Under the pieces are notes generated by a model. It did no database searches. It was not told the origin of the DNA and worked only from the letters and a program-made list of their open reading frames with translations. A stretch of 56,893 nucleotides of DNA, taken from positions 1-56,893 of the forward strand of contig DALYLJ010000001.1 in NCBI GenBank assembly GCA_031976395.1. The letters run 5' to 3'. This DNA comes from Lysobacteraceae bacterium (lineage in GTDB: Bacteria; Pseudomonadota; Gammaproteobacteria; Xanthomonadales; Xanthomonadaceae). Every line of letters begins with the position of its first letter. Within the stretch, counting starts at the first letter, position 1. Position numbers and translations under genes: made by a program. Shown in pieces: positions 11,101-52,953 of the stretch.

Positions 11101-11350
11101 TCAGCACCTCGCGACCGTCGCGCCAGACGCTCAGGCGCCGAGCGCCGGCCTCGACCTGAACCCGCACCGCACCCTCGGCATTGGTGCGGGCGATCGGTAG
11201 CTGGTCGATGCGCACTTCGGCCTCGGCCAGCGGTATCTGATCGTCGAACAGCACCAGTGACAGCGAGGCCGGATCGGCCGCCAGTGCCGACTGCACGGCC
11301 GCGACCAGGGCAGCGAAGGCGAGGGTCGGTCGGTGGCGAAATCGGGTCAT
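8171..11350 (-). CDS. TonB-dependent outer-membrane receptor with N-terminal carboxypeptidase-regulatory-like domain(s)
   Basis: I trimmed the ORF to the ATG at 11350, giving [24 protein letters not shown] as signal peptide. There is a CarboxypepD_reg-like segment [45 protein letters not shown]. The plug reads [42 protein letters not shown]. The C-terminus ends ...LTVEWSPF with a terminal aromatic residue. Confidence 0.9.
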   Translation of the reverse strand: [1059 protein letters not shown]

Positions 11351-11397
11351 CGGGCGGGTTCCGGCAACGAGCGGGCGGCGGTCGGGGCAGTTGACGA

Positions 11398-12573: not shown

Positions 12574-12574
12574 G

Positions 12575-13207: not shown

Positions 13208-13210
13208 CGA

Positions 13211-13624: not shown

Positions 13625-13628
13625 GGGT

Positions 13629-14240: not shown

Positions 14241-14253
14241 GATCCGCTCGCGC

Positions 14254-16442: not shown

Positions 16443-16630
16443 TGGGGTGGGGTCTCCGGAGGGATTCAGACACGCGGGGCACCGGTCGGATGCCGACGGT
16501 GGTCAGGATATGACCGACCGATGACCGATTTATGACACCGCACCGGCTATCCGGCGCGAGCGAACGCCGGCATCTCCGCCCGGGCGACGGCCCAGGCCGG
16601 CCACCGCCGGGACCGGCAATGCCGGCTACA

Positions 16631-34735: not shown

Positions 34736-37564
34736 TCAACCAGCATCGGGCGGACAGAATGCCGCCAGGCTCTCGATATCGTGCCCGAAGCGCGTGCTTG
34801 GCCAGGGGGTTGGCATGCCGGCCATCACGGCGGCGATCCGATCCCGACCACCGGGATCGCCCACCACACACTCCAACTCACCCAGCACCGCCTCCGCCCG
34901 CCAGCGCAGTTTGCGGGCGGCGATACCCTCGTCCACGAACCGATTCGCCACGTCACGCACCAGTTCACGGGCACGCTCGACCCGGCCGACCCGGGCCATC
35001 GCCCGAGCAAGACTGAGTTCGGCGGCACCGCAGGCCGGATGATGCGGCCCGAAATGGCGATTCATCAGGGCTACCGCCTGGATCAGGCTGGTTTCCGCCG
35101 CGTCCCAGTCGCCGCGGGCGGCCTGCGCCTCGCCAATGAAACGCCAGGCGCTGCCGACGGCGGCATGATCGTCGCCATGGACCCCACGACGGCCGTCCAG
35201 GGCGGCCCGGAATTCCGCTTCGGCCGCTTCCGGACGCCCGGCGACCATCAGGATGCGACCCAGGCTCAGTCGTGCGCCCGGAAGTCGCATCGGGTCGGGA
35301 GTCGCCGACCAGATGGCGATCGCCCGGCGCAGTTCGGCCTCGGAGGTCTCCGCATCACCACGCTCGAAGGCGATTGCCGCGCGCGTCTCGTAGATCGCAC
35401 CCAGATCCGGATGCTGCTCACCGAAACGCGCCACCAGGGTCGAGCGGGCGACCTCGGTCATCCGCTCGGCGCCGTCGAGGTCGCCGTTCTCCATCAGCAC
35501 CTCGGCGAACTGCAACTGGCTCTCGGCGGTGGCCGGATGATCCGGACCATGCCGACGCATGGACAGCACCAGGGCTTCGCGGGCAGCACCCTCGGCGGCG
35601 GTCAGGTCGCCACGCTCGCGGTAGAGCATCCCGAGATTGCGCCAGATCGCCACTGCCAGAGGACCGTCGTCCTCCTCGGCCACCCGCAAGCGATCCAGTG
35701 CCCGGCGCAGGCCGGCGATCGCCTCATCAGGCAAGCCGGCATCGGCGTCGATGGCGGCCAGATCGATCAGACTCTCGGCCTGTGCTCGATTGTCGCCGTC
35801 GGTCTGACGCAGTTCCAGGGCATGTTCGAGCAGGTCGCGGACCTCCCGTGTGCGGCCGGTCAGACGCAGACAGCGGGCCTTCTCGGACATCAGGTCGGCA
35901 CGCCGGGCCGCCGTGTACTCGGGACCGAGCAGTTCGGGATTGGCATCAGCCTCGAACAGGGCTTCGCATGCCTGGGTCTGGCCGAGCCCACGGTGGGCGC
36001 GGGCCTGCTCGATCCAGGCATCGATCTGGGCCTCGCGACGATCGGCTTCGCCGAGTTTGGCCAGCGCGAGGGTTTGCAGGCCGATGGCGTCCAGTGCCTG
36101 GTCATGATCGCCGATGTTGTTGAGCAGGCGGGCAATCAGTCCGAGCATGGCGACCTGCGAGACCGGCTCATCGACCAGGTCGGTACCGGCCCGCTCCAGA
36201 CCAGCCTGGAGCAGGCCGCGCAGATCCATCGCCTGGCTCGCCGGAGCATGATCGCCCTCGAACAGGCTGACCACGAACCCCTGCATCGCCTGGGCACGCG
36301 CCGCCTCGCTGATCGCCTCGCGCGCCTGCCAGACGGCAACCGCGAGACTGGTCGAGAGCAGCGCGAACACGCCGACCCCGGCCGCCAGTGCCAGACCATG
36401 CCGACGCAGGTACTTGCAGAAGCGATAGCCCACGCCGGCCGGCCGTGCCAGGATCGGCCGACCCTCCAGGTAGCGTTGCAGATCCTGGGCAAGGGCCTCG
36501 ATCGAGGCATAGCGTCGCGCCGGCACCTTGTGCAGGGCCTTGAGCACGATCGTGTCGATGTCACCGGCAAGCTGGCGGGCCAGACGCGCATCAGGACTGG
36601 GCGCAACACCGCCTCCGGGGACCGACATCGCCTGTGGTCTGAGCACGGCCAGCGAGGGCCGGATGGCGTCGCTTTCGAGAATTGCCGTCTGCCAGGCAGC
36701 ATCGGTGTCGGACTCGACCCGGTACGGTCGGAAGCCGGTCAGCAACTCATAGAACACCACACCGAGCGAATAGACGTCGGTCATGGTGCCGACCGGCTCG
36801 CCGGCCAGTTGTTCGGGTGCGGCGTAATGCAGGGTGAAGGCACGGGCGTCGAGCAGGGTGTGCTCGCTGCCGGAACTGGGCGTATCGAGCAGTTTGGCAA
36901 TCCCGAAATCGAGCAGGCGGACATCGCCGGCCGGGGTCACCAGGATGTTCGACGGTTTGAGGTCGCGATGCACGACCAGACTGGCATGGGCATGACTGAC
37001 CGCCGCACAGACCTGGAGCAACAGCCTGACCCGATCGGCGACGCTGGCATTCTGGCGGCGGGCGTAGACCGTGATCGGCTCGCCCTGGATGTACTCCAGG
37101 GCCAGATAGGGCTGGCCGTCATCGCTGACTCCGGCATCCAGGAAGCGGGCGATGTGGGCATGCGCCAGCCGGGCCAGGATCTGCCGCTCGCGCTGGAATC
37201 GTTGCTTGAGGTCGGCACTGGCCAGACCCGGACGCAGCAGTTTGAGGGCGACCCGGCGCTCGTACAGGCCATCGGCACGCTCGGCCAGCCAGACCTGGCC
37301 CATGCCACCCTCGCCGATCTCACGTTCGAGGCGGTACGGACCGATCATTCGCCCGACCAGCGGGTGGCCAAGCATGGTCGCGACCGCCGGATCGGCCAGA
37401 AAGTCGGGATGGCGACGATCGAGATCGAGCAGCCGCTGCACTTCTCGCGCCATCGCCGGCTCGGTCTCGGCCAACTCGGCCAGCCGACGCTCGCGCGCGT
37501 GGTCGGGCAAGTCGATCAGTTCGTCGAGCAGGGGTGACAGCCGGCGCCAGTCGGTTCCGCTCAT
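34736..37564 (-). CDS. Membrane Ser/Thr protein kinase with an N-terminal ECF-associated region and a large C-terminal TPR domain
   Basis: Hanks kinase motifs are present: IGEGGMGQVWLA, VALKLL, HRDLKPSNILV, DFGIAKLL and APEQ. One TM helix (LALAAGVGVFALLSTSLAVAVW) follows. After it comes a ~500-aa TPR-like array. Confidence 0.9.
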   Translation of the reverse strand: MSGTDWRRLSPLLDELIDLPDHARERRLAELAETEPAMAREVQRLLDLDRRHPDFLADPAVATMLGHPLVGRMIGPYRLEREIGEGGMGQVWLAERADGLYERRVALKLLRPGLASADLKQRFQRERQILARLAHAHIARFLDAGVSDDGQPYLALEYIQGEPITVYARRQNASVADRVRLLLQVCAAVSHAHASLVVHRDLKPSNILVTPAGDVRLLDFGIAKLLDTPSSGSEHTLLDARAFTLHYAAPEQLAGEPVGTMTDVYSLGVVFYELLTGFRPYRVESDTDAAWQTAILESDAIRPSLAVLRPQAMSVPGGGVAPSPDARLARQLAGDIDTIVLKALHKVPARRYASIEALAQDLQRYLEGRPILARPAGVGYRFCKYLRRHGLALAAGVGVFALLSTSLAVAVWQAREAISEAARAQAMQGFVVSLFEGDHAPASQAMDLRGLLQAGLERAGTDLVDEPVSQVAMLGLIARLLNNIGDHDQALDAIGLQTLALAKLGEADRREAQIDAWIEQARAHRGLGQTQACEALFEADANPELLGPEYTAARRADLMSEKARCLRLTGRTREVRDLLEHALELRQTDGDNRAQAESLIDLAAIDADAGLPDEAIAGLRRALDRLRVAEEDDGPLAVAIWRNLGMLYRERGDLTAAEGAAREALVLSMRRHGPDHPATAESQLQFAEVLMENGDLDGAERMTEVARSTLVARFGEQHPDLGAIYETRAAIAFERGDAETSEAELRRAIAIWSATPDPMRLPGARLSLGRILMVAGRPEAAEAEFRAALDGRRGVHGDDHAAVGSAWRFIGEAQAARGDWDAAETSLIQAVALMNRHFGPHHPACGAAELSLARAMARVGRVERARELVRDVANRFVDEGIAARKLRWRAEAVLGELECVVGDPGGRDRIAAVMAGMPTPWPSTRFGHDIESLAAFCPPDAG

Positions 37565-37650: not shown

Positions 37651-38253
37651 TCAACTGTCCCGCAGGCTGGCGAGCAGGAACATCCGAGCCTTCTGCCAGT
37701 CGCGCCGGACGCTGCGCTCGGAACGCTCCAGGAGGGCGGCGATCTCCTCCTCGGACAGGCCGGCGAAATAGCGCATTTCAACCACCTGGACCAGGCGCGG
37801 ATCGACCGCCGCCAGACGATTCAGCGCTTCGTCCAGTGCCAGCGTGTCCTCGTCGAGACGAACCCCGCCCCCGAAATTCTCGGGCAATTCGGTCACCCGC
37901 TGGCGATCGCCGCCGCGCTTCTGCGACAGACGCTGGCGGGTGTGGTCGACCACGACACTGCGCATCGCCGATGCGGCGTAGGCAAAGAAATGGGCGCGGT
38001 CGTCGAACTGGGTCTCACGCTTGCCGGCCAAACGCAGATAGGCCTCGTGGACCAGGGCGGTGGCATCCAGGGTGTGGCCACGGTTCTGACCGATGTGTCG
38101 TCGGGCCATGGCGTGCAGTTCGCGGTACAGGACGCTCAACACGCGGTCCAACGCCTGGCGATCGCCATTGCCAGCGGCTCCGAGCAGGCGTGTGATGTCT
38201 TCACTGGTGCCGTCTGGATTCATGCTGCGTGTACTCGGAGACAACCCTGTCAT
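37651..38253 (-). CDS. ECF-family RNA polymerase sigma factor of the kinase-associated type (ECF43/TIGR02999-like)
   Basis: ITRLLGAAGNGDRQALDRVLSVLYRELHAMARRHI is the typical N-terminus. Region 2 reads ATALVHEAYLRL. Region 4 reads VVEMRYFAGLSEEEIAALLERSERSVRRDWQKARMFL. The start is 38253 or 38223. Confidence 0.9.
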   Translation of the reverse strand: MTGLSPSTRSMNPDGTSEDITRLLGAAGNGDRQALDRVLSVLYRELHAMARRHIGQNRGHTLDATALVHEAYLRLAGKRETQFDDRAHFFAYAASAMRSVVVDHTRQRLSQKRGGDRQRVTELPENFGGGVRLDEDTLALDEALNRLAAVDPRLVQVVEMRYFAGLSEEEIAALLERSERSVRRDWQKARMFLLASLRDS

Positions 38254-41080: not shown

Positions 41081-44000
41081 TCAGGCCAGCGGTCGCCGGG
41101 CACCGAGGAATGCCCGCACATGGGCCGGCTTGATCGGCTTGGTCAGCACGGGATATCCCAGATCCCGAGCACGTCGCTTCAATGCATCACTGCCGTCGGC
41201 CGTGACCAGGGCACCCGGACAGACACCGCCTGAAACCCGCGCCAGTGCCTGCAACGCCTCCAGACCATCGAGGCGATCGTGCAGGTGGAAATCGACCAGC
41301 AATCGATCGGGCGGATCCGCCTGCGCCGCCGCCAGTGCGGCGTCGATGGTCTCGGCACAGGTGACCCGCACGCCCCAGCGACCGAGCAGGGCGGTCATGC
41401 CATCGAGAATCTCGCGATCGTTGTCCAGACACAGCACATGCAGGCCGCGCAGGGCGCGCTCGACCGGCTCGCTGTGCGGTCGGACCGCCGCAGCGGTGGT
41501 GTGGCTGATCGGTGCCCGGATGGCGAATACGCTGCCCCGACCCGGCCGCGAACGCACCCGCATCGGATGACCGAGCATCCGGCTGATCCGCTGACAGATC
41601 GACAGACCCAGGCCAAGTCCGTGCTCACCCCAGGGCGATGGGCTGTCGAGTCGCTTGAACTCCTCGAAAATCTGCCGCAGATGATGCTCCGGAATACCGG
41701 CACCGGTGTCCCAGACCTCGATCTCCAGCCACTCGCCACGACGGCGACCACCCAGCACCACCCGCCCGGTCGAGGTGTAGCGGAGGGCATTGACGACCAG
41801 GTTCTGAATCACCCGTCGCAGCAGTCGGCGATCACTGCGGACATCGATCCGGGTGCCATGGGTACGAAAAACCAGCCCGCGCTTGGTCGCCAGCGGTGCG
41901 TACTGCTCGGCGATGTCGGCCAGCAGGCCATCGACTGCGAACACGGTGATCTCCGGCTTGAGCACACCCGCCTCCAGGCGGGAAATGTCGAGCAGCCCGT
42001 CGAGCAGTTCCTCGGCGGCGCGCAGCGAGGTATCGACGCGCTCGGCCAACCGGCGCTGCTCGGCACTGTCATCGGTATCGCGCAAGGCCGAGGCGAACAG
42101 GCGAGCGGCATTGAGCGGTTGCAGAACATCATGGCTGAGGGCGGTGAGGAATCGGGTCTTGGACTCGTTGGCCGCGACCGCATCCTGGCGCGCCTGACGC
42201 TGGGCCTCGACCGCCGAAGCGAGTTCACGAGTGCGCTGGGCGACCCGCGCCTCCAGGGTCTCGTTGGCCTCCCGCAATGCCTGCTCGACCCGCTTGTAGT
42301 CGGTCACATCGCTATAGGTGCTGACATAGCCACCGCCAGCCAGCGGCTGGCCACGCACCTCGATCACCTGACCACTCGGGCGCACCCGCTCGAACAGGTG
42401 CGGACTGCCCTGGCGCAGGTGCGCGACCCGCTTGGCGACCATCGCATCGACATCGCCCGAACCCATCTCACCATGCTCGGCATTGAAGCGGATCAGATCG
42501 GCGACCGGCCGACCGACATAGAGCATGCCGTCCGGATAGCCGAACAGGGTCTGATAGCGACGATTCCAGGCGATCAGACGGAGATCGCGATCGACCACAC
42601 TGACGGCCTGCGACAGATTCTCCAGCGTGGTCGATAGCACCTCCCGGTTGAAGCGCAGTTCCTGGCTGGCCTCATCGAGCAGATTGACCACCTCGCCAAT
42701 CTCCATGCCGGTGCCGCGCAGGGCACTGGTCAGGGTCAGACGGGCGGACGCCGCACCGATCGAAGCCGCCAGCAGCCGCTCGCAGAACTGCACCAGGGCA
42801 CGGTCGGCCGGCGCATCCTCATCCAGTTCCCGGTGCTGGGATGCCAGATGCTCCTCGAACCCGCGTCGGGCCTCGCGTACACCGAGCACACGACCGGCCA
42901 GGGCAAGCAGATCGCCGGCCCGGACATTGCCGCGCCAGCCATTGTCGGCAACCGACCGGGAAGCGTAGGGGTCGAGGAAAGGGGTCGCCCGGATGCGGTC
43001 CTCGAAGCTCGGCCGATAGCGCGCCGAAACCACCATCAGGGCACCGATGTTGAACAGCAGCGACCAGAACGTGCCATGGGTGATGGCATCCCAGCCGCTG
43101 ACCCCGAACAACTGCTCGGGCCGCAGCCAGCCGAGGCCGAGCGGCCCCTGCTGCAACCACGCCTCGCCCAACCAACCGGCGCGCGACAGGGTCGGCAGCA
43201 GCAGGGTGTACAGCCACAGTGCGAATCCGACACTCAGGCCGGCATAGACCCCGACCCGACTCGCCCCCCGCCAGTACAGGCCACCGATCAGGGCCGGCGC
43301 GAACTGGGCGACGGCAGCGAAGGCCAGCAGTCCGAACGCAGCCAGATTGCCGGTGTTGCCGGCGACCCGGTAATAGGCGTAGGCGACCGCAGCCAGCACG
43401 ATGATGCTCAGTCGGCGCACCCACAGCAGCAGATCACCGACCGGATTGTGGCGATCGGCGCGCAGCAGGCCGGTCCGCCACAGCGCTGGCATCACCAGAT
43501 CGTTGCTGATCATGGTCGCCAGGGCGACGCTGGCGACGATCACCATGCCGGTGGCCGCCGAGAAGCCACCGACATAGGCGGCCAGCGCCAATGCCTCGTT
43601 GCCCTGCAGCAAGGGCAGGGCCAGCACGTAGGCATCGGCAGCGATGCCCTGCCCGGCCAGCACGGCGGTTCCAGCCGCCGTGATCGGCAATACCATCAGA
43701 CAGATCAACACCAGATAGCCGACAAACCACCAGCGCGCCCGCCCGACATCGCCGGCCTCCTCGCACTCGACCACCGCGACCTGAAACTGGCGCGGCAGGC
43801 AGACGATGGCGGTGAAGGCGAGCAGGGTCTGCGCAACGAACCCCCTGGGCAGTTCGTGACGCGCGAATTCGGCCAGGGTCGCGGCCAGCCGCTGGCTGAG
43901 CCCGTCGGCACCCGGCAGCAGTGAGAAGGCGTAGGCACCGAGCATCAGGAAGGCCACCAGCTTGACCACCGATTCCAGCGCCACTGCCAGCATCATGCCG

Positions 44001-44569
44001 TGATGGTGCTCGGTGGCATCGATCCGGCGAGTGCCGAACAGGATCGCGAACAACGCCAGCAGGGCCGCGACGTACAGCGCCGGATCGGCCAGCCATGGCC
44101 GCTCGCCAAGATCGCCACGGGGAGCATCGGTGAGGACATCAATGCTCATCGCCACCGCCTTCAGTTGCAGGGCGAGGTAGGGAATCACCGCGACCACGGC
44201 GATCGAACTGACCAGGGCCGCCAGACCCTGGCCACGACCGAAGCGGGCACCGATGAAGTCGGCGATCGACACGGTGTTCTGCTCGTGGCCGATCAGCACG
44301 ATCCGCTCCAGCATGCGCCAAGCGAACACGAACAGCAGAATCGGACCAAGATAGATCGGCAGAAAGCCCCAGCCGGTGCTGGCGGCCGTACCGACCGCAC
44401 CGTAGAACGTCCACGACGAGCAGTAGACCGCCAGCGCCAGACTGTAGACCATCGGCCGCAGCCAGGAATGCTGCGGATACAGCGGCCGCCGGTCGCCATA
44501 CCAGGCGACCGCGAACAGCAGCCCGACATAGCCGACCGAAACCGCCAGCAAGACCCATCCAGCGACCAC
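41081..44569 (-). CDS. Hybrid sensor histidine kinase/response regulator with an N-terminal sodium:solute-symporter-like domain (CrbS/MxtR/CbrA-like architecture)
   Basis: I propose a GTG start at 44569, 6 nt after GGGAGGG. The first ~560 aa form a multi-TM SSF-like domain. A PAS domain follows (VSVVDRDLRLIAWNRRYQTLFGYP). HisKA is KTRFLTALSHDVLQPLN. HATPase_c is EVWDTGAGIP...GLGLGLSI. The C-terminal receiver reads VLCLDNDREILDGM...LLVDFHL. Confidence 0.9.
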   Translation of the reverse strand: MVAGWVLLAVSVGYVGLLFAVAWYGDRRPLYPQHSWLRPMVYSLALAVYCSSWTFYGAVGTAASTGWGFLPIYLGPILLFVFAWRMLERIVLIGHEQNTVSIADFIGARFGRGQGLAALVSSIAVVAVIPYLALQLKAVAMSIDVLTDAPRGDLGERPWLADPALYVAALLALFAILFGTRRIDATEHHHGMMLAVALESVVKLVAFLMLGAYAFSLLPGADGLSQRLAATLAEFARHELPRGFVAQTLLAFTAIVCLPRQFQVAVVECEEAGDVGRARWWFVGYLVLICLMVLPITAAGTAVLAGQGIAADAYVLALPLLQGNEALALAAYVGGFSAATGMVIVASVALATMISNDLVMPALWRTGLLRADRHNPVGDLLLWVRRLSIIVLAAVAYAYYRVAGNTGNLAAFGLLAFAAVAQFAPALIGGLYWRGASRVGVYAGLSVGFALWLYTLLLPTLSRAGWLGEAWLQQGPLGLGWLRPEQLFGVSGWDAITHGTFWSLLFNIGALMVVSARYRPSFEDRIRATPFLDPYASRSVADNGWRGNVRAGDLLALAGRVLGVREARRGFEEHLASQHRELDEDAPADRALVQFCERLLAASIGAASARLTLTSALRGTGMEIGEVVNLLDEASQELRFNREVLSTTLENLSQAVSVVDRDLRLIAWNRRYQTLFGYPDGMLYVGRPVADLIRFNAEHGEMGSGDVDAMVAKRVAHLRQGSPHLFERVRPSGQVIEVRGQPLAGGGYVSTYSDVTDYKRVEQALREANETLEARVAQRTRELASAVEAQRQARQDAVAANESKTRFLTALSHDVLQPLNAARLFASALRDTDDSAEQRRLAERVDTSLRAAEELLDGLLDISRLEAGVLKPEITVFAVDGLLADIAEQYAPLATKRGLVFRTHGTRIDVRSDRRLLRRVIQNLVVNALRYTSTGRVVLGGRRRGEWLEIEVWDTGAGIPEHHLRQIFEEFKRLDSPSPWGEHGLGLGLSICQRISRMLGHPMRVRSRPGRGSVFAIRAPISHTTAAAVRPHSEPVERALRGLHVLCLDNDREILDGMTALLGRWGVRVTCAETIDAALAAAQADPPDRLLVDFHLHDRLDGLEALQALARVSGGVCPGALVTADGSDALKRRARDLGYPVLTKPIKPAHVRAFLGARRPLA

Positions 44570-44655
44570 CGAAATCCCTCCCCACCGGGTGCCTGGCCGA
44601 TGATAGCCCGCAGCGTGGTGCGACCGGGCATCGACCGCTCGGCTCGACCCACGCA

Positions 44656-44677
44656 GCCGCATGTACCGGCATGCGGC
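44656..44677. promoter_or_regulatory. Inverted repeat gccgcatg-N6-catgcggc in the divergent crbS-like/DUF294 intergenic region
   Basis: Read directly from the sequence: 8-bp perfect arms with a 6-nt spacer. It is a candidate operator. Function is not established. Confidence 0.3.
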
Positions 44678-44710
44678 GAAAGTCGAAGTGACGGCCCGAT
44701 CGCGACATGG

Positions 44711-44732
44711 CACCCTGGATGACACCCTGGAT
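44711..44732. repeat. Tandem direct repeat CACCCTGGAT-ga-CACCCTGGAT in the same divergent intergenic region
   Basis: Read directly from the sequence: two identical 10-mers with a 12-bp period. This geometry suits a response-regulator or other dimeric DNA-binding protein. Confidence 0.35.
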
Positions 44733-44861
44733 CGCCACCATGCCCCCCGCGCGCACTGCCTTGCCTTCGGCCAACCCGTCGCCCGAACCTGCCTGCCCGG
44801 CGCGGCCAGCCTGCTGTCGCTCGACGGCCGGCCGACTCAGTGCAGCCATCGGGTGCGGCGC

Positions 44862-46706
44862 ATGAGTCCCGTGAGCGAATCCCTGCCCGGCCTCGACCTC
44901 GACGCACCGCCGTTCGACCTGCTTGACGCCGGATCGCGGCAGCGCCTGCTGGCAGCGGTCGATCTCGGCTACTTCCCGATCGACACCGTGCTGATCGAAC
45001 AGGGCCGGGCCTCCGAGCACTTCTTCGTGGTGCTCAAGGGCCGGGTGCTCGCCTTCGAGCGGCGCGAGGGCGAAGAGCACCGGTTCGCAGACTTCGGTCC
45101 CGGCGAGGTGTTCGGCGCCTTCGCCGTGATCATCGGCCGAGCCCGGCACGGCTACCGCGCACTGGAAGACACCCTCTGTTTCCAGATTCCCGCTGCCGTA
45201 TTCAAACGCCTGCTGACAGACAACCCGCGCTTCGCCGCCTGGTTTCACGAAGGGCTTGCGGTCAAGCAGCAACTCGCCGACAATCCGCAGCCCAGCGAAC
45301 TCGGCCGGCTGATGCTGACCCGAGTCGGCGATGCCCAACTGGCACCGGCCGTGACCGTCCCCGACACGACCGGCATCGCCGACGCCTGCGACCGGATGCG
45401 CTCGCAACGAGTCGATTGCCTGATGGTCGCCGCCGATGCCGACCAGCACGAACTCGGCATCGTCACCCGCACCGACCTGCTGGATGCCCTGGCCCTGCAC
45501 CGCCGCCCCTGCGACAGCCCGATCGCCGACCTGGCCAGTCGGCCATTGATCACCGTCCGTGCCCAGGACGCGCTGTTCCAGGCCCTGGTCACGATGACCG
45601 AGCGGCACATCGAACGGGTGGCCGTGCGTGATGGTGAACGGATCATCGGCACCCTGGGGATGGCCGAAGTGCTGGCCCACTACGCCAGCACCTCGCACCT
45701 GATCAGCCTGCGCCTGGCGCGTGCGCGCACACTCGCCGAGGTCGCCGATGCCGCACAGGGCCTGACCGAACTGGTCCGCACCCTCAATGCCCAGGGCGCA
45801 CGGGTGAGCTACCTGATGGAAATGGTCAGCGCACTGAACGGGCGGATCATGCGCCGAATCTTCGAGTCGATCGTCCCGGAGCGCCATCGCGATCATCTGT
45901 GCCTGCTGGTTCTGGGCAGTGAAGGCCGACGCGAGCAGATCCTCAAGACCGACCAGGACAACGCCTTGATCATCGCCGACAGCCTCGACTGGCCGGACCA
46001 CGACCAGGGCGGGCTCGACGCCGCCATGGCCCGCTTCAGCGCCGCCCTGGCCGAGGTCGGCTACCCGCCCTGCCCCGGCGCCGTGATGGTCAGCAACCGG
46101 CATTGGCGGATGACCGTCGGAGGCTGGCTGGAACGGATCGAGCGCTGGCATCGAAACCCGGACGGCCAGGCCATGCTGGACCTGTCGATCGTGCTCGATG
46201 CCCGGTTCATCGCCGGCCGGGAATCGCTGTTCCAACCGCTCGCCGAAGCCCTGCTGGCGCTGGGCCGCGACGACATCCTGATCCGGCAACTGGCCGAACC
46301 TGCGGTGCGCTTCGGACCGGCACTCACCTTGTTCGGCCAGGTCAAGGGCGACCGGGACGGCACCGACATCAAGAAAGGAGGCCTGTTCCCCCTGGTTCAC
46401 GGCCTGCGGGTACTGGCCCTCAAGCATGGCATCGGCCGCCGCAACAGCTTTGATCGTTGCCAGGCCCTGGTCGAGGCCGGCGTCCTGCCGGAATCGCTCG
46501 GCCACGACCTCGCCCAGGCCATGGCGGTGCTCCAGCGATTGCGGCTGAACCGCCAGCTCGACGCCCTCACCCATGGCGAACCGCCAGACAACCGGATCGT
46601 TGCCGCCACGCTCGGCACCCTCGATCGCGAATGGCTGCGCGACGCCCTGCGGGTGGTCAAATCGTTCAACGGCTTCCTCGCCGAAGCCCTGCACCTGAAG
46701 CTCTGA
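44862..46706 (+). CDS. cNMP-binding / tandem CBS / DUF294 putative nucleotidyltransferase protein
   Basis: I trimmed the ORF to the ATG at 44862. The cNMP-binding fold reads FFVVLKGRVLAFER...FGPGEVFGAFAVI. A CBS pair is present (RVDCLMVA...GIVTRTDLL; IERVAVRDGERIIGTLG). The NTase core reads LLVLGSEGRREQILKTDQDNALII, and a DUF294_C-like helical end follows. Confidence 0.85.
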   Translation: MSPVSESLPGLDLDAPPFDLLDAGSRQRLLAAVDLGYFPIDTVLIEQGRASEHFFVVLKGRVLAFERREGEEHRFADFGPGEVFGAFAVIIGRARHGYRALEDTLCFQIPAAVFKRLLTDNPRFAAWFHEGLAVKQQLADNPQPSELGRLMLTRVGDAQLAPAVTVPDTTGIADACDRMRSQRVDCLMVAADADQHELGIVTRTDLLDALALHRRPCDSPIADLASRPLITVRAQDALFQALVTMTERHIERVAVRDGERIIGTLGMAEVLAHYASTSHLISLRLARARTLAEVADAAQGLTELVRTLNAQGARVSYLMEMVSALNGRIMRRIFESIVPERHRDHLCLLVLGSEGRREQILKTDQDNALIIADSLDWPDHDQGGLDAAMARFSAALAEVGYPPCPGAVMVSNRHWRMTVGGWLERIERWHRNPDGQAMLDLSIVLDARFIAGRESLFQPLAEALLALGRDDILIRQLAEPAVRFGPALTLFGQVKGDRDGTDIKKGGLFPLVHGLRVLALKHGIGRRNSFDRCQALVEAGVLPESLGHDLAQAMAVLQRLRLNRQLDALTHGEPPDNRIVAATLGTLDREWLRDALRVVKSFNGFLAEALHLKL

Positions 46707-46707
46707 C

Positions 46708-47340
46708 ATGTCGGCGGTGATGCGCTGGTGGTTGCGACGCAGGCACGGACGAGGGCCGTGGCGCGGCCTGCTCGACCCCCACCCCGGTGACGAACAGGTC
46801 TCGCTCGACCTCGAAACCACCGGCCTCGACCCCCGCCACGATCGAATCGTCGCCCTGGCCGCCGTACCGATCCGCGACGGCCGCATCCGGCTGTCGGAGC
46901 GCTACACCCGGCTGGTCAACCCCGGCCGCAGCTTCGGCATCGACTCGATCCGGCACCATCGGCTTCGGCCCAGCGACCTGATCGACGCCCCGCGCCTGGA
47001 GACCCTTCTGCCGGATTTCCTCACCTGGCTCGGCAACCGGCCGCTGCTCGGCTACTGCATCCGCTTCGACCTGGCCATGCTGGCCGGCCCGACCCGCGCC
47101 CTGACCGGCTTCACCCTGGTCAATCGCCGGATCGACATCGGGTTCGAGTACGCCGCCCGTCAGCGCCGACGGCATCCGGAAACCGAACCCAGGCTCGACC
47201 TCGACTCGATTGCCCGCGCCCTGGACGTACCGATCCTCGAACGCCACAGCGCACTCGGCGACGCCCTGACCGTAGCGATGTGCTGGCTGGCCTTGCAAGC
47301 CGATCGCACCGGCTCGAACCAGACCAGCCGACTGCGGTGA
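46708..47340 (+). CDS. DnaQ-like DEDDh 3'-5' exonuclease
   Basis: ExoI is VSLDLETTGLDP. ExoII-like is LLGYCIRFDLAML. ExoIII is HSALGDALTVAM. It starts 1 nt after the DUF294 stop, so the two genes are likely co-translated. Confidence 0.85.
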   Translation: MSAVMRWWLRRRHGRGPWRGLLDPHPGDEQVSLDLETTGLDPRHDRIVALAAVPIRDGRIRLSERYTRLVNPGRSFGIDSIRHHRLRPSDLIDAPRLETLLPDFLTWLGNRPLLGYCIRFDLAMLAGPTRALTGFTLVNRRIDIGFEYAARQRRRHPETEPRLDLDSIARALDVPILERHSALGDALTVAMCWLALQADRTGSNQTSRLR

Positions 47341-47483: not shown

Positions 47484-48527
47484 GTGCCAGGAACAGAAAA
47501 CGCCCGCACCATCGATCCGCAGCATGGCGCCGATCGCTTCGGAGCCGTGCCGCCGCCGCGCATGACCCTTTTGCCCCGACAACTGTCGGCCATCGAGTTC
47601 GATCTGTTCCTGGGTACCGGCGAACCGATTCTGGTGGCCACCGGCCAGACCCTGTTTCGGCGTGGCGAAGCCGGTCGCCACATGTTCGTGGTCGAATCCG
47701 GTCGGATCGAACTCGATTTCGGCGACGACCTGCCGCGCAAGTACATCGAGGCACAGGAATACTTCGGCGAACTGGCACTGTTCATCGGCGAACACGGCCG
47801 CATGGCCAATGCCACCGCGCTCGAACCGGCCCGCCTGCGGGTGGTCGATCGCGATGACTTCGAACGGCTGCTGGCCTCGTCTCCGGAGGTGCTCGCCCGC
47901 TTCATGCTGCGCTCGTTCTCCTACCTGGTCGCCAGCGAACAGCACCTGATCCAGAACCTGCGTCGGCGCAACGAAGAGCTGATGCAGACACTCGACTCGC
48001 TGCGCCGAACCCGCGGTGAACTGGGCGCCGCGCGCCGACTCTCGATCAGCGACGAACTGACCGGCCTGGCCAACCGCCGCGGCCTCTACCAGCACCTGGA
48101 AAGCCTGCGCGAACACCCACCACAGCCCGAGCGACGGCTTGGTCTGCTGCTGGTCGATGTCGATCACTTCAAGCAGATCAACGACCGTAACGGCCATCTG
48201 GTCGGCGATCGGGTTCTGCAGGGGGTCGCCGACTGCCTGCGTCGGGCCGCCGGCAGCGATGACCTGCCATGCCGACTCGGCGGCGATGAGTTCGCCTTGC
48301 TGCTGGTCGCCAGCGATCCCGAGCAACTGGCCGAGCGTGCGGCCCGACTGGTCGCGATGGTGCGCCAGATGCAACTCGTCGAGGGCGCACCGGGCCTGCG
48401 GCCCAGTGTCAGCGTCGGCGGCTGCCTGGCCGATCCCAGCGAGGAGTGGGCGGTCTGCTACAGTCACGCCGATACCGCGCTGTATCGCGTCAAGGCCCAG
48501 GGTGGCGACGGCTGGTCACTGTACTGA
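47484..48527 (+). CDS. Diguanylate cyclase with an N-terminal cyclic-nucleotide-binding domain
   Basis: I propose a GTG start at 47484, 7 nt after GGGGAGAG; the ATG at 47562 is an alternative. The cNMP domain reads FRRGEAGRHMFVVESGRIEL...YFGELALF. A coiled-coil follows. The GGDEF domain reads DELTGLANRRG...LLLVDVDHFKQINDRNGHLVGD...LPCRLGGDEFALLL. Confidence 0.85.
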   Translation: MPGTENARTIDPQHGADRFGAVPPPRMTLLPRQLSAIEFDLFLGTGEPILVATGQTLFRRGEAGRHMFVVESGRIELDFGDDLPRKYIEAQEYFGELALFIGEHGRMANATALEPARLRVVDRDDFERLLASSPEVLARFMLRSFSYLVASEQHLIQNLRRRNEELMQTLDSLRRTRGELGAARRLSISDELTGLANRRGLYQHLESLREHPPQPERRLGLLLVDVDHFKQINDRNGHLVGDRVLQGVADCLRRAAGSDDLPCRLGGDEFALLLVASDPEQLAERAARLVAMVRQMQLVEGAPGLRPSVSVGGCLADPSEEWAVCYSHADTALYRVKAQGGDGWSLY

Positions 48528-48693
48528 GCCCGACCCGACCGCATAGCTGCCGGCCGACTCATGGCCGGCCCCGATGTTCAGGACAGTCCAGCATCGGAGC
48601 GAACCGAGCCGCTCGCGCATCGACGTATCATGAACCGACGCGCGGCCCAGGATGCACCCCAGTCAATCTGCCAGCGGAACCGGTGACGACCCC

Positions 48694-51363
48694 ATGACCA
48701 TCGAATCTGCCGACCCTACGACCACCGACCCGAGCGGCGCCAGCACCACGCGCATGAGTGCCGTGGTCTGCCTCGACCTCGCCGACTCGACCGCCCTGGT
48801 CGAACGGCTCGGCGACGCGCGCGCCGCCGACCTGATCCGCCAGCACGACCGCATGGCGCGCGATCTGATGCAGCGCCACCATGGCCGCGAGATCGACAAG
48901 ACCGATGGCTTCCTGGTGCTGTTCGAGCGGGCCATCGACGCCGTCGCATTCGCACTCGAACACCAGCTTGCACTCGCGCGCTCCGGCCGCGACGGCGAGC
49001 GCCTGCTGCGGGCACGGATCGGCATCCATGTCGGCGAAGTCGTGCTCTGGGAAAACAGCGACGACGATGTCGCCCGTGGCGCCAAGCCTCTCGAAGTCGA
49101 GGGCCTGGCCAAGCCCCTGGCGGCTCGTCTCACCAGTCTCGCCCGACCCGGCCAGGTTCTGCTGTCCGAACACGCCTATGGCCTGTCCCGACGGGCCGAG
49201 GGCGAATTGCCGACCGACCTCGGAGCCGTCCGCTGGCTCGACCACGGCCGCTATCGCTTCAAGGGCATCGCCGAAGCGATGCCGGTGTACGAAGCCGGCC
49301 TGGTCGGCAGTTCACCGCTGCGCGCCCCGATCTCCGGCCCCAAGGCCGAGCGCGAGCGGCCGCTGTGGCGACATCCAACCACCCTGGCGATCGAAATCGC
49401 CGCCCTGATCCTGATTGCTTCCGGCGTGTTCTACCTGCTGCTCCGGGACTCTCCGGCCCTGGCATTCGCCGAACGCGACTGGGTGGTGGTCGGCGACCTC
49501 ATCAACCACACCACCGAACCGCTGTTCGACGACGCGCTGGAAACCGCCCTGCGGGTCGGACTGGAGCAGTCGCGCTTCATCAACCTCATTCCGGAATTGC
49601 AGGTCAATGCCAGTCTGGCACGGATGAACGCCGGCACGGCCGACATCGATCGTCGAATCGGCACCGAGCTTGCGGTTCGCGAAGGTGCCCGAGCCGTGTT
49701 CCTGCCGACCATCGCCGAGGTTGGCGGCCGAGTCCGGTTCACCGTCGAAGTGATCGACCCGCGCAGTGGCGCCACCGTATTCGGCGAGAGTGCCGACAGC
49801 GACGGCCTGGACGGCGTGCTTCCGGCCATGGATGACGTGGTGGCGCGCCTGCGCACCCGTCTGGGCGAATCGATGGCCAGCATTTCCGCCAGCAGCGCGC
49901 CGCTGGCCAGGGTCACCACCGGCAATCTGGAGGCACTGAAAGCCTACTCGCTGGCGATCGATGCCATGGCCACCGGCGACCCGCGCAAGGCATTGATGCT
50001 GTTCAACCGGGCAATCGAACTGGATCCTGACTTCTCCGCCGCCCACGCCAAACTGGCGGGCCTGCATCTTCTGGGTGACGATCGACAGAAATCACGCGCC
50101 GCGTTGGAAGCGGCCTATCGCAACCGCGAGCGCCTGTCGGAACGTGAACGCCTGCACATGGACGGCATGATGGCCAATCTGCACTCACCGGACGCCATGA
50201 TCGAGCGCTGGGGGCAACTGGCGGCGCTCTATCCCGACTACCTGGTTGGCCAGCAGAACCTCGGCTCGGCCTACTGGATGCAGGAATACCGATACGCCGC
50301 CGCCCTGGAGCAGTTCAACCACCTGATCGACAGCGGCCATCCGCTGCGCACGTTGTCGATGCAGAATGCCGCCGTCATGTACACCGCCCTGGGCGAATTC
50401 GATCAGGCATCCGAACTTTATGCCCGCGCCCTGTCGCACGGCGGAATCAACCTGTTCGACGGCCCGGTCGATCTGCACCTGGCCCAGCGTCAGCACGAAC
50501 AGGCGCTCGCCACCCTGTCGGTCGATCTCAGCCGCGACATCGCCTCGACCGTGTTCTGGAAGGCCCTGCGCAAGATCGCCGTGCAGGCCGACCTGGGCCA
50601 GGCAAGGGCCGTGGAACAGACCCTGGCCGAGCTCGCCCAGAATCCCGCCGTCAGCGCCAACCCGGCCAACGCGCTCCGAATGGAGTTGGCTCGCCTGGCC
50701 GTTCTGGCCGACACCCGCCCGGACGCGGTCGGCGCCGAACTGGAGACCTACCTCGATCGGCTGCATGGCGAACTCGATCCGAATCCGCTCACCCCGATCG
50801 ACGGATTGCCAAGCCTCATGCTGATCGCCGCCAATCTGGCTGCCCAGACCGGCCACCTGCAACTCGCCGATCGGCACTATCGGATACTGGCACCGCGTGT
50901 CCTCGCCACACCGACGTTCGAGCGGCTCGCCCTGCTCGACGCACTGCGCTGGCGATTGAAACCGAGCCAGCCGGACCTGGATGAAGCGAGCCTTCCCGGC
51001 AACACCTTCTACCTCGACCGCAGCCTCTATCTACGCGAGATCGCCCGCGCCGAATACGACCTTGCCCAAGACCAGCCCGATGCCCTGGATCGACTGGCGA
51101 GTCTGTGCCGCGATCGCCGAACCGCCGTCAGCGAGTGGGGCAGCGGCTTTTCCCTGCTGGTACCCAACATCCTGGCCAGCAATCGTGCCTGTCAACGCGC
51201 ATCGCAGGTAGCCGAGCACACCGGCCGCACCGACCTCGCCAAGGCACTCGGCGAACTGCTCGATCGCGCCTGGCAGCACGCCGACCCGGACTGGCCGGGC
51301 CGGCGCACCGCCGGAGCGACTCCGGCAGACCGATCACTCGACCAGGAAGATCCAGAGGCCTAA
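48694..51363 (+). CDS. Class III adenylate/guanylate cyclase-domain protein with a TM segment, periplasmic domain and C-terminal TPR array
   Basis: I trimmed the ORF to the ATG at 48694. The cyclase fold reads SAVVCLDLADSTALVERLGD...KTDGFLVLFE...ARIGIHVGEVV...ARLTSLARPGQVLLSEHAY. The TM helix is TLAIEIAALILIASGVFYLLL. Later TPR-like repeats are present. Confidence 0.8.
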   Translation: MTIESADPTTTDPSGASTTRMSAVVCLDLADSTALVERLGDARAADLIRQHDRMARDLMQRHHGREIDKTDGFLVLFERAIDAVAFALEHQLALARSGRDGERLLRARIGIHVGEVVLWENSDDDVARGAKPLEVEGLAKPLAARLTSLARPGQVLLSEHAYGLSRRAEGELPTDLGAVRWLDHGRYRFKGIAEAMPVYEAGLVGSSPLRAPISGPKAERERPLWRHPTTLAIEIAALILIASGVFYLLLRDSPALAFAERDWVVVGDLINHTTEPLFDDALETALRVGLEQSRFINLIPELQVNASLARMNAGTADIDRRIGTELAVREGARAVFLPTIAEVGGRVRFTVEVIDPRSGATVFGESADSDGLDGVLPAMDDVVARLRTRLGESMASISASSAPLARVTTGNLEALKAYSLAIDAMATGDPRKALMLFNRAIELDPDFSAAHAKLAGLHLLGDDRQKSRAALEAAYRNRERLSERERLHMDGMMANLHSPDAMIERWGQLAALYPDYLVGQQNLGSAYWMQEYRYAAALEQFNHLIDSGHPLRTLSMQNAAVMYTALGEFDQASELYARALSHGGINLFDGPVDLHLAQRQHEQALATLSVDLSRDIASTVFWKALRKIAVQADLGQARAVEQTLAELAQNPAVSANPANALRMELARLAVLADTRPDAVGAELETYLDRLHGELDPNPLTPIDGLPSLMLIAANLAAQTGHLQLADRHYRILAPRVLATPTFERLALLDALRWRLKPSQPDLDEASLPGNTFYLDRSLYLREIARAEYDLAQDQPDALDRLASLCRDRRTAVSEWGSGFSLLVPNILASNRACQRASQVAEHTGRTDLAKALGELLDRAWQHADPDWPGRRTAGATPADRSLDQEDPEA

Positions 51364-51585
51364 CTGACCGTTCAACTTCGACTTGATGGCCTCACGATTG
51401 GCCTTCAGCACCTCTTTCGAGGGCAGCCGACGCACGGCCGGCACCTGGGCCGGATCGACACTCACCCCAAGCGTATGCAGCACCAGGGCCGGATTGCCCA
51501 AGAACTGCTCGCGGAATTGATCGTCGCTGGACAGCCGGTCGAGCAGGGTATCGACGATCTCGGGTGTGAAACAGGTATTGGTCAT
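51334..51585 (-). CDS. 83-aa NHLP-like (nitrile-hydratase-leader-like) putative modified-peptide precursor
   Basis: The ATG at 51585 lies 8 nt after GGGGAGA. The product is MTNTCFTPEIVDTLLDRLSSDDQFREQFLGNPALVLHTLGVSVDPAQVPAVRRLPSKEVLKANREAIKSKLNGQLGLWIFLVE. The segment LLxRLxxDxxFRxxFLxNPxxxLxxxGV resembles NHLP leader domains. It is divergent from a SagB-type dehydrogenase. The track ORF 51334..51762 is longer, but its upstream part is Arg/Ser/Gly-rich. Confidence 0.6.
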   Translation of the reverse strand: MTNTCFTPEIVDTLLDRLSSDDQFREQFLGNPALVLHTLGVSVDPAQVPAVRRLPSKEVLKANREAIKSKLNGQLGLWIFLVE

Positions 51586-51783
51586 GGTCGTAGTCTCCCC
51601 AGGGTGCGATGGTGTGGATCGGCGTGACGCCCGCTGGCACGACATGGCAGCCAGGCGGGCCGGTGAGGATACTATCAGGCCGACCGACCCTCCGACGGCC
51701 GACGCCGTCGGGACGCCGCCCTGAAGCCCAGAAACGCCGCTCGCCGCCATCCGATCGATCACCCCCTATCCGAGAGCCCCCGC

Positions 51784-52953
51784 ATGCTCGTGCGCCGCTG
51801 TGCCATCGTCATGATCGAACCCCGCGAACGTCTCGACTTCGATCTGACCGTGCTGTTTCGCGGCGAAGGCGCGTTCACCACGCACATCGAATGGCTGGCC
51901 CTGGCCGCCCACCTCGACCAGCCGGTCGTCCTGTCGATCGCCGATCTCGAACTGCTCGGCCGGTTCGGCGAAACGCTCTGGATCGATCGCAGCCGCCTGC
52001 CCACCGACCTGTCCCAGACCGGCATCGACACCCTGCTCACAGCCGGACTGCTGATCGCCGACAGCATCCACCCGGAACACCGCCATCGCGATGAACGGGT
52101 CCGCGCGACCCATTGGCGCGCACTGTCGGCACTGACCCACATCCACAGCCGCTGGCATGACATCAATGCCATCCGCGACTCGACCGCCGGATACACCGAT
52201 ATCCGCGACATGGTCGCCCAACTTGGCCCGCCGCCGCCGGAAACCATCGACCGCCGACCGACCGACGCGCGCATCACCCTTCCGGCCGCGCCTTCGGATC
52301 GTCTCGACCCGATCCTGCACGCCCGCTACACCGGTCGCAATTACGACAGCCGAGCGGTGTTGCCGCTGGCCACCGCGAGCCGGCTGCTGCAACGCAGCTT
52401 CGGCGCGCAATGGACGCGCGAACTGGCACCGGGGGCGGTGGCGCTGAAGAAGACCAGCCCGTCCGGCGGCAGTCTGCATCCGACCGAAGCCTATCTGCTG
52501 GTCCAACGGGTCGAGGGCATCGCGCCCGGCCTCTACCACTACCACCCGATCGATCATGCCCTGGAACCACTGGCCACCCTCACCGACACGGCTGCGCGGA
52601 CCACCGCGCTGCGCTTCGTCGCCGATCAGCACTGGTTTGCCGATGCACCGCTGATGGTCGTACTGGCCACCCGTGCCCAGCGCAATTTCTGGAAGTATCG
52701 CAACCACCCGAAAGCCTATCGAGCGGTGCTGCTCGATGCCGGCCACCTGTCGCAGACCTTCTACCTGTTGGCCGCCGAGGCTGGCCTGCCGGCCTTCATC
52801 ACCGCCGCCATCAACGAAGTCGAGATCGAACAGGCATTCGGACTGGACCCGATCGATGACCTGGTGGTCGCCGTCCTCGGCTGCGGCCCTGCCGCCGAAC
52901 ACCCCGAAACGGTCGAATTCCGTCACATCCCCCACCTCCCGGACCCCCACTGA
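51784..52953 (+). CDS. SagB-type (nitroreductase-fold, FMN) putative peptide-maturation dehydrogenase with a distinct ~190-aa N-terminal domain
   Basis: The C-terminal half carries the SagB/nitroreductase signature: RYTGRNYD..., KKTSPSGGSLHPTEAYLLV, GLYHYHPIDHAL, KAYRAVLLDAGHLSQTFYLLAAEAGLPAFITAAINE. The N-terminal half matches no family I know. The start may be 51784 or 51811. Confidence 0.82.
   Translation: MLVRRCAIVMIEPRERLDFDLTVLFRGEGAFTTHIEWLALAAHLDQPVVLSIADLELLGRFGETLWIDRSRLPTDLSQTGIDTLLTAGLLIADSIHPEHRHRDERVRATHWRALSALTHIHSRWHDINAIRDSTAGYTDIRDMVAQLGPPPPETIDRRPTDARITLPAAPSDRLDPILHARYTGRNYDSRAVLPLATASRLLQRSFGAQWTRELAPGAVALKKTSPSGGSLHPTEAYLLVQRVEGIAPGLYHYHPIDHALEPLATLTDTAARTTALRFVADQHWFADAPLMVVLATRAQRNFWKYRNHPKAYRAVLLDAGHLSQTFYLLAAEAGLPAFITAAINEVEIEQAFGLDPIDDLVVAVLGCGPAAEHPETVEFRHIPHLPDPH

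Follow-up and report, generated by a model that had tools for sequence, protein, structure and literature searches.

A catalogued peptide, dehydrogenase and receptor cyclase module in a Lysobacteraceae bacterium, and what it may do

Oxidation of a ribosomal peptide by a SagB-type nitroreductase domain that acts without a YcaO partner has a recent precedent in the pos/pfl gene clusters of Pseudomonas. The precursor of these clusters, PflA/PosA (Os1348), is a helical protein of 85 amino acids (aa) of the NHLP type without a Gly-Gly site, and the SagB-type nitroreductase domain of the fusion protein PflD converts the Phe of an ...AAIFD... sequence to Z-dehydrophenylalanine (-2 Da), with no YcaO protein involved (2025 preprint, PMC12636437). 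The authors of that study regard YcaO-independent nitroreductases in such clusters as rare and uncharacterised, and consider that they may make other dehydro amino acids (PMC12636437). Os1348 is a stable dimer and has been found at full length in cells (PMC12636437, PMC7726476), and loss of its gene lowered antibiotic activity in Pseudomonas (PMC7726476). Here we describe a locus of a Lysobacteraceae bacterium (assembly GCA_031976395.1, contig DALYLJ010000001.1) at which the gene of an 83-aa peptide and that of a SagB-type dehydrogenase stand next to the gene of a receptor-type cyclase; the window is the whole 56,893-nucleotide (nt) stretch that we analysed. An earlier, sequence-only reading of this stretch had seen a "minimal" two-gene cassette and had no precedent for its chemistry; the Pseudomonas work now provides one, and the cassette has turned out to be larger.

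The peptide, the dehydrogenase and the cyclase belong to the curated families TIGR04509, TIGR04511 and TIGR04510. The cyclase is therefore a third curated member of the system, and together with a gene for a cyclic nucleotide (cNMP)-binding GGDEF protein the locus forms a four-gene module. The peptide-dehydrogenase pair is linked to a membrane sensor, the dehydrogenase retains a flavin mononucleotide (FMN) motif and a catalytic dyad, and YcaO, protease and exporter genes are missing. A literature search by model names and descriptions found no published work on the three families, which agrees with the sequence-only reading in that no function was known to it; the trio is catalogued by name, with no experimental work found on its product, chemistry or function. 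That the locus is the window's copy of a compact and rare four-gene system, catalogued but uncharacterised, whose peptide chemistry and signalling role we infer below, seems to us to fall only a little short of an even chance.

The peptide gene and its product comprise the following features.

51334-51585, minus strand: TIGR04509 peptide, made up of an NHLP-clan helical domain (aa 8-71) and a short hydrophobic tail (NCBIfam, homologue alignment, AlphaFold2)
51337-51369, minus strand: C-terminal tail G73-E83 (GQLGLWIFLVE), putative core or modification site (conservation, parallel with PosA/PflA)
51346-51348, minus strand: codon of Phe80, candidate modified residue (tail conservation)

The gene encodes 83 aa and starts with an ATG; GGAG stands 9-12 nt upstream of it. 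We could confirm the coordinates of both genes as first drawn (51334-51585 on the minus strand and 51784-52953 on the plus strand, separated by a divergent spacer of 198 bp), along with the Shine-Dalgarno sequence and ATG. Against TIGR04509, "NHLP-related RiPP peptide" (RiPP, a peptide made on the ribosome and then modified post-translationally), the product scored 64.8 bits over residues 6-73, above the cutoff of 34, and against NF038399, "Os1348 family NHLP clan protein", 41.5 bits, marginally above the cutoff of 40. The classical NHLP leader model TIGR03793 gave 21.1 bits (E 2e-4) over residues 9-47 only, below its cutoff of 50.9, and a Gly-Gly cleavage motif before the tail is absent from the sequence and from the homologue alignment. 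Thus, the likeness to NHLP proteins that had been proposed holds for the clan but not for the classical leader family.

Thirty-three close homologues are 60-100% identical to the peptide across its full length; they measure 82-84 aa, except for one of 102 aa, and an identical peptide in a metagenome-assembled genome of Xanthomonadales is annotated as "putative modified peptide". Conservation among the 33 is highest in the blocks FREQFLGNPA and VPxxRxLPSK and in the C-terminal tail, where G73 is invariant and G76 and F80 are conserved in at least 90%. The single Cys near the N-terminus that had caught attention earlier is indeed present (C5), but it is not conserved among the homologues and proved irrelevant. 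The tail GQLGLWIFLVE itself holds no Cys, Ser or Thr. Because the peptide lacks a core rich in these residues, azole chemistry is unlikely, and the suggestion that any chemistry must differ from azole formation has stood.

The AlphaFold2 model of the peptide (predicted local distance difference test, pLDDT, 74.7) has helices at residues 8-20, 22-30, 32-38, 57-62 and 64-71, arranged as a bundle of five or six short helices over aa 8-71 and followed by a tail modelled at low confidence. In a structure search with this model the RiPP precursors SonA and Os1348 ranked at the top, non-significantly (E ~1). On this model, the peptide looks like a helical domain that presents a flexible, conserved, core-like tail. 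Among 81 distinct family members whose tails we compared, those of the window's group end in ...G-L-x-I-F-L-V-E at the extreme C-terminus, those of systems linked to a histidine kinase in ...A-x-P-F-F-L-S-G or ...M-x-P-F-L-L-S-G, and those of a Rhodanobacteraceae subgroup in [C/S/T]-M-x-x-P with no conserved Phe. The tails are thus constant within a system type and different between paralogous systems, and they are not hypervariable.

When aligned with PosA by hhalign, residues 14-56 of the window peptide matched with E 0.0044. Past the helical part the two proteins have parallel C-terminal stretches, AIRDKIGVAIFD in PosA and AIKSKLNGQLGLWIFLVE in the window, and the dehydrophenylalanine site of PosA/PflA, which reads ...K(I/L)G..AIFD, resembles the window tail.

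The dehydrogenase and the spacer that divides it from the peptide gene are laid out as follows.

51784-52953, plus strand: TIGR04511 SagB-type FMN dehydrogenase, 389 aa (NCBIfam, Pfam, alignments, AlphaFold2)
51784-52353, plus strand: family-specific N-terminal domain, aa 1-190 (AlphaFold2, cluster search)
52324-52341, plus strand: R181-Y-T-G-R-N186, putative FMN-phosphate motif (R181, T183, G184, R185 and N186 invariant in 15 members)
52693-52698, plus strand: K304-Y305, Lys-Tyr catalytic dyad within FWKYRNH (invariant in the family, aligned with WKY)
51586-51783, no strand: divergent intergenic region of 198 bp between the peptide and dehydrogenase genes (read from the sequence)

The protein matched TIGR04511, "putative peptide maturation dehydrogenase", with 504.9 bits (cutoff 240), residues 3-379 corresponding to positions 1-378 of the 380 in the profile. 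The profile searches that the sequence-only reading had suggested hence place both proteins above cutoff, and the two TIGRFAM names it had given, "putative modified peptide" and "putative peptide maturation dehydrogenase", correspond to TIGR04509 and TIGR04511. Its assignment of the C-terminal half to the SagB/nitroreductase type is borne out by the SagB domain model TIGR03605 (117.5 bits) and by a match to Pfam Nitroreductase. The motif R-Y-T-G-R-N is invariant across the 15 family members that we aligned, and it fits R-x-[ST]-x-R, which we regard as the FMN-phosphate motif of nitroreductase-fold proteins. FWKYRNH is likewise invariant, and its WKY aligns with CyaGox/ThcOx and with PosD. In McbC, the Lys-Tyr dyad abstracts the C-alpha proton while the C-beta hydride passes to N5 of FMN (PMC6395948). 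Through the ThcOx and PosD alignments, K304-Y305 would be the counterpart of McbC K201-Y202. The PosD domain, for which we translated the machine-read construct sequence in the supplement of PMC12636437, is 31% identical to the window dehydrogenase over 159 aa (E 3e-15), and KKTSxSGGSLH and WKY are common to both. Two cysteines are also invariant across the dehydrogenase family, Cys6 (51799-51801) in M-x-x-R-R-C-A at the extreme N-terminus and Cys367 (52882-52884) in G-C-G-P near the C-terminus; they may serve in redox chemistry, in metal binding or in a disulfide.

The AlphaFold2 model of the full dehydrogenase reached a pLDDT of 74.9, and its first 110 residues, with values of 76-94, form a topology of beta-sheet plus helices. 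Structure searches with this model returned ThcOx as the best match, at full length over ~400 columns, then McbC and BmdC; the AlbAB cyclodipeptide oxidase came at rank 32. An N-terminal recognition domain, as had been surmised, is plausible given the confident model of this part and the rank of ThcOx, which has N-terminal recognition-type domains. In the model the order of secondary-structure elements fits a PqqD-like RiPP recognition element, a leader-binding winged fold of a three-stranded sheet and three helices, although Pfam PqqD is unmatched. Among 1.84 billion proteins, the N-terminal domain is confined to 196 clusters (at 50% identity); in matches that cover it whole, it starts no more than ~25 residues from the N-terminus of proteins of roughly 370-480 aa. 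We suppose that it binds the helical domain of the peptide.

An ordinary small-molecule nitroreductase beside a small open reading frame (ORF) that arose by chance would also match Pfam Nitroreductase. This explanation is hardly credible and is already contradicted: the ORF is conserved at the protein level in at least 33 clusters and passes a curated model, and the enzyme has a private N-terminal domain of 190 aa together with SagB-type signatures. With 33 close full-length homologues and the linkage described next, the peptide ORF is real beyond chance.

To collect related loci, one genome per species was scanned with an alignment of the dehydrogenase, which yielded 236 loci; the counts that follow refer to the best 80, which we examined. 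Their hosts are mainly Lysobacterales/Xanthomonadales and Oxalobacteraceae (Duganella, Massilia, Rugamonas, Pseudoduganella and Janthinobacterium), with one Myxococcaceae and one Sphingomonadaceae genome besides. Of the 80 loci, 76 have a TIGR04509-type peptide beside the dehydrogenase, and among the four that do not, two are truncated contigs. The pairing for which a neighbourhood check had been proposed is thus conserved; the neighbouring peptides of the other loci scored 49.6-75.5 bits on TIGR04509. The peptide gene lies on the strand opposite to the nearest dehydrogenase in every case (83/83), 42 times divergent upstream and 41 times convergent downstream. The 198-bp intergenic region of the window is poorly conserved among relatives; a consensus sigma-70-like promoter was not found in it, and no palindromic CRP/Clp-like site was seen there by eye.

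A membrane sensor is linked to the pair in 72 of the 80 loci, and six of the remaining eight run into a contig end. In 15 loci this sensor is a TIGR04510 cyclase, and in 12 of these 15 an orthologous cNMP-GGDEF gene immediately precedes the cyclase gene, the order found in the window. In another 57 loci a hybrid histidine kinase of 1,600-2,070 aa lies 6-274 nt from the pair. Such kinases have a periplasmic sensor of Reg_prop beta-propeller/Y_Y_Y type followed by HisKA-HATPase-REC-REC-Hpt, sometimes with a fused GGDEF domain; in three that we scanned, a signal or transmembrane segment precedes the propeller, and a second transmembrane segment after it was detected in one. That the peptide and dehydrogenase are a self-contained two-gene cassette with unrelated neighbours, as the sequence-only reading had it, draws on the fact that only these two components are common to all architectures. 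It is nevertheless very improbable and already contradicted, for the neighbour passes TIGR04510, a model curated for this very system, membrane sensors accompany the pair at the frequency just given, and the four genes travel jointly. The module flanks of other loci are not shared with the window, and since the genes stay together while the flanks change, the four-gene module moves as a unit.

Several other neighbours were considered as parts of the module and rejected as lineage synteny: malate synthase and isocitrate lyase in Rhodanobacteraceae, and, in Duganella, a RegB/RegA-like pair, an NHL-repeat protein and a 2-hydroxyacid dehydrogenase. The RegB/RegA-like pair, a histidine kinase plus a 195-aa REC and Fis-type helix-turn-helix regulator (for example L006:5983-7888), stands directly upstream of the dehydrogenase and co-oriented with it in ~24 Duganella-type loci; it is probably a matter of synteny, and could be a transcriptional regulator of the pair.

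No YcaO protein, leader protease, peptidase-domain ATP-binding cassette (ABC) exporter or C39 gene was found by Pfam scans of the ORFs judged coding, which covered the window from ~1 kb to its end. Across the 80 loci, YcaO, an E1-like partner, a leader protease, an exporter and an immunity gene are likewise not conserved, an ABC-ATPase-like ORF occurring in one locus only. The earlier statement that YcaO, protease and exporter are missing nearby therefore extends to the 56.9-kb window so scanned and to the conserved content of the related loci. A multinuclear non-haem iron-dependent oxidase (MNIO), an HEXXH hydroxylase and a GNAT protein are also absent from the window and the related loci.

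In the absence of a cyclodehydratase partner, and with no azoline to oxidise, the enzyme may act on the tail directly. The small helical NHLP-clan domain of the peptide would be held by the N-terminal domain of the dehydrogenase, and the tail G73-E83 would be offered to the flavin site. Removal of the C-alpha proton and the C-beta hydride from a tail residue would then give an alpha,beta-dehydro amino acid (-2 Da), with Phe80 as the best candidate by analogy with the dehydrophenylalanine made by PflD/PosD. On that analogy, C-alpha/C-beta dehydrogenation of a tail residue is the best-supported chemistry for this locus and Phe80 its best candidate site.

It is quite unlikely, in our estimate, that the 83-aa protein is instead a partner that binds the flavoenzyme stably or regulates it as a subunit, comparable to AlbB in AlbA-AlbB, with a small-molecule substrate or with a redox input to the sensor. 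Such a role would suit a peptide that is conserved along its whole length, is predicted to fold and has no cleavage site, and it would agree with the dimeric, full-length state of Os1348 in cells and with the presence of AlbAB among the structural matches. However, the homologue PosA/PflA has been shown to be a substrate (PMC12636437), the dehydrogenase keeps the dyad used for deprotonation of a peptide C-alpha, and the flexible conserved tail resembles a presented core. Moreover, enzyme subunits are normally co-transcribed, whereas here the two genes are always on opposite strands.

The sensor side of the window module consists of two genes.

48652-51363, plus strand: TIGR04510 "putative peptide modification system cyclase", 903 aa, homologue of receptor-type class III cyclases (NCBIfam)
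48748-49326, plus strand: cytoplasmic cyclase-homology domain, ~aa 33-225 (phmmer, family alignment)
49384-49440, plus strand: single predicted transmembrane helix, aa 245-263 (hydropathy scan)
49441-51360, plus strand: periplasmic region with TPR repeats, putative sensor part (Pfam TPR, divergence tracking)
47562-48527 (conserved part), plus strand: cNMP-binding and GGDEF diguanylate cyclase protein (Pfam, orthologue alignment)

The 903-aa protein scored 703.2 bits on TIGR04510 over residues 33-845 (cutoff 400). Its cyclase domain matched Ma1120, an active class III cyclase of mycobacteria (4wp8 and others; phmmer E 6e-15), and both metal-binding Asp positions (D-x-x-DST, DKTDGF) and the transition-state Arg are kept in 20 members of the cyclase family that we aligned. 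A hydropathy scan revealed one segment only, LAIEIAALILIASGVFYLL (mean 2.38), and a cluster of Lys and Arg that precedes this helix is conserved in the family alignment. With a single transmembrane helix, aa 264-903, 640 residues that include the TPR repeats (Pfam TPR_1, TPR_19, TPR_12 and others at aa 430-600), are therefore placed in the periplasm. The ORF of the upstream gene is open from 47280, while conservation among orthologues begins at the ATG at 47562, from which we take its start; the protein matches Pfam cNMP_binding (58.4 bits) and GGDEF (130.7 bits), and its GGDEF motif is intact. It likely reads the product of the cyclase.

The cyclase gene converges on the peptide gene, and their 3' ends overlap by 30 nt (51334-51363). 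Short overlaps of cyclase and peptide genes also occur in three other loci (L071, L076 and L078), and a transcript that read through from the GGDEF-cyclase operon would run antisense to the mRNA of the peptide.

Several genomes have two or three cassettes. In one locus (L078, 208-13647) three cyclase-peptide-dehydrogenase units stand in tandem behind one cNMP-GGDEF gene, and two of its cassettes have cyclase domains that are 95% identical, with 48% identity between the periplasmic parts, 32% between the peptides and 47% between the dehydrogenase N-terminal domains. Tandem arrays of two or three cassettes that follow a single cNMP-GGDEF gene are also seen in L074, L077, L084, L053 and L063, and some tandem loci have two peptide genes per cyclase.

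We compared pairwise identities among 19 cyclase-peptide-dehydrogenase cassettes by Spearman correlation and a Mantel test. Peptide identity tracked that of the periplasmic part of the receptor (Spearman 0.61, Mantel p ~0.0005) and of the dehydrogenase N-terminal domain (0.57) but not that of the cytoplasmic cyclase domain (0.08, p 0.16), numbers to be read with the reservation that the pairs are non-independent and the compared regions differ in evolutionary rate. Orthogonal recognition units that consist of sensor, peptide and enzyme N-terminal domain and feed a shared output would be expected to give such a pattern, which supports this arrangement at the level of sequence.

Taken together with the proposed chemistry, these observations suggest how the module might work. 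The receptor cyclase's periplasmic TPR region would have the modified small protein as its cognate partner, most likely as its ligand; the cyclase would then make a cyclic nucleotide, the upstream cNMP-GGDEF protein would read it, and the output would be cyclic di-GMP (c-di-GMP). In the Oxalobacteraceae variant, the same pair would instead be wired to a giant hybrid histidine kinase whose periplasmic sensor is a beta-propeller. A signalling role rather than that of an arms-race antibiotic is suggested by the fact that the pair is linked exclusively to membrane sensors whose periplasmic domains are large, by second-messenger outputs in both architectures, and by conserved tails and missing export, immunity and protease genes. 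The specific proposal of a tail-dehydrogenated small protein that serves a dedicated membrane receptor as its cognate signal, with c-di-GMP as the output and with a TPR-cyclase as the receptor in Xanthomonadales and a beta-propeller hybrid kinase in Oxalobacteraceae, is tentative, and taken as a whole somewhat unlikely.

As an antimicrobial or bacteriocin-like modified peptide, of the sort proposed for Os1348 in Pseudomonas, the product would have a receptor that senses the environment and regulates production without being the peptide's target. The lower antibiotic activity after loss of the related Os1348 gene (PMC7726476) speaks for such a function, RiPP clusters often hold regulators, and the pairing of peptide and dehydrogenase would be explained equally well. 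We nevertheless consider it rather unlikely: no exporter, immunity gene or protease is conserved in the 80 loci, the tails are conserved instead of hypervariable, and neither receptor type has a DNA-binding output, the outputs being cNMP, c-di-GMP and a phosphorelay. Tandem cassettes with their own diverged sensors and a near-identical output domain are better fitted by cognate recognition than by regulation.

Several points weigh against a modified peptide that signals through the receptor cyclase, in addition to the reservation on co-variation made above. The cyclase domain scored 16.4 bits on Pfam PF00211, under the gathering cutoff of 21.9, and in the 20 family members the catalytic Asn (V-N) is replaced by an invariant K-P; synthesis of a cyclic nucleotide by the window domain is thus a putative activity. 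Homology of the peptide to Os1348 is argued for by the NCBIfam score and the weak hhalign match only, because BLASTP gave no alignment of the window peptide with PosA and a search of its profile against PDB sequences gave zero matches at E up to 10. Dehydrophenylalanine cannot be the universal product, because the [C/S/T]-M-x-x-P tails of Rhodanobacteraceae have no conserved Phe. An arrangement on opposite strands is unusual for a substrate and its enzyme, and with no signal peptide, cleavage motif or linked exporter, the peptide has no evident route to a periplasmic sensor. In two Pseudoduganella loci (L032, L033) no TIGR04509-like peptide was detectable at permissive thresholds within 8 kb on each side of the dehydrogenase. 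Distant members of TIGR04511 (L081:3-1357, L083:102-2099 and L082:5258-7255; N-terminal domain identity 24-28%, 373 bits on the model) have a different gene context.

The three distant loci have no TIGR04509 peptide; what overlaps the start of the dehydrogenase there is a co-directional UCP032817-like protein of 159 aa, and its C-terminal part holds LPIIFE, reminiscent of the ...IF[D/L] tails. This protein may, judging from its sequence, represent a different substrate class.

The remaining window genes have housekeeping functions or belong to unrelated signalling. A second cNMP-binding protein (44661-46706; cNMP_binding, CBS and DUF294 nucleotidyltransferase) and an RNase_T-type exonuclease (46708-47340) are encoded directly upstream of the cNMP-GGDEF gene; the two are absent beside the module in other loci, and the former was rejected as a module part because it is not conserved elsewhere. 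Signalling genes are dense between 34736 and 44725, where an extracytoplasmic function sigma factor (37651-38253, minus strand) adjoins a TPR-repeat Ser/Thr protein kinase (34736-37564, minus strand) and a PAS-containing hybrid histidine kinase occupies 41081-44725 (minus strand). A cluster at 8171-16502 (minus strand) encodes a TonB-dependent receptor with CarboxypepD_reg, a TPR protein, TonB, ExbD, two MotA/ExbB-family proteins and a DUF3450 protein.

If the signalling proposal is true, Gram-negative bacteria would have a self-signalling or quorum circuit of a new, peptide-based kind, in which orthogonal pairs of peptide and receptor stand in tandem. Biosynthesis of a modified peptide would then be connected with the control of lifestyle by second messengers in plant-associated and environmental Xanthomonadales as well as in Duganella and Massilia. 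With a single peptide, a single enzyme and no further tailoring genes, the module also offers a clean test case for YcaO-independent SagB-type dehydrogenases.

In comparison with known systems, the window resembles pos/pfl (PosA/PflA, NF038399, PDB 6lk7) in its helical NHLP-clan precursor of ~85 aa without a Gly-Gly site, in a YcaO-free SagB-type domain and in a hydrophobic ...IF... shortly past the helical domain. It differs in lacking the MNIO, the HEXXH hydroxylase, the GNAT protein and the efflux pump, and its dehydrogenase is a standalone protein with its own N-terminal domain, in contrast to the MNIO-nitroreductase fusion PosD/PflD. The poly-Gln/ARMD tail of the pos/pfl precursor is missing from the window peptide; the window genes lie on opposite strands and are tied to a second-messenger receptor, not to transporters. 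With the azoline dehydrogenases (SagB, McbC, BcerB, ThcOx/CyaGox) and the non-ribosomal peptide synthetase oxidase BmdC, which are its best PDB matches in sequence and structure, the window dehydrogenase has the nitroreductase fold, the FMN motif and the Lys-Tyr dyad in common. Unlike thiazole/oxazole-modified microcin pathways, the locus has neither a YcaO/E1-like (Ocin-ThiF) cyclodehydratase nor a Cys/Ser/Thr-rich core, and for these two reasons no azoline substrate is to be expected. AlbA/AlbB, which performs C-alpha/C-beta dehydrogenation of Phe and Leu side chains, likewise joins a flavoenzyme of nitroreductase fold to a small partner protein, but it acts on a diketopiperazine and not on a ribosomal peptide, AlbB bears no relation to NHLP-clan proteins and the N-terminal recognition domain is missing. 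Receptor-type class III cyclases (Ma1120 and the Rv1900c/LipJ cyclase domains) have a homologous catalytic domain with both Asp and the Arg kept; the window cyclase departs from them in its invariant K-P for Asn, in its single-pass topology with a large periplasmic TPR region, and in its dedication to a peptide-dehydrogenase pair. Within the TIGR04509/TIGR04510/TIGR04511 trio, finally, the window locus is a typical member, its three adjacent proteins all passing the curated cutoffs, whereas most TIGR04509/TIGR04511 pairs among the best 80 loci go without TIGR04510 and have the Reg_prop hybrid histidine kinase in its place.

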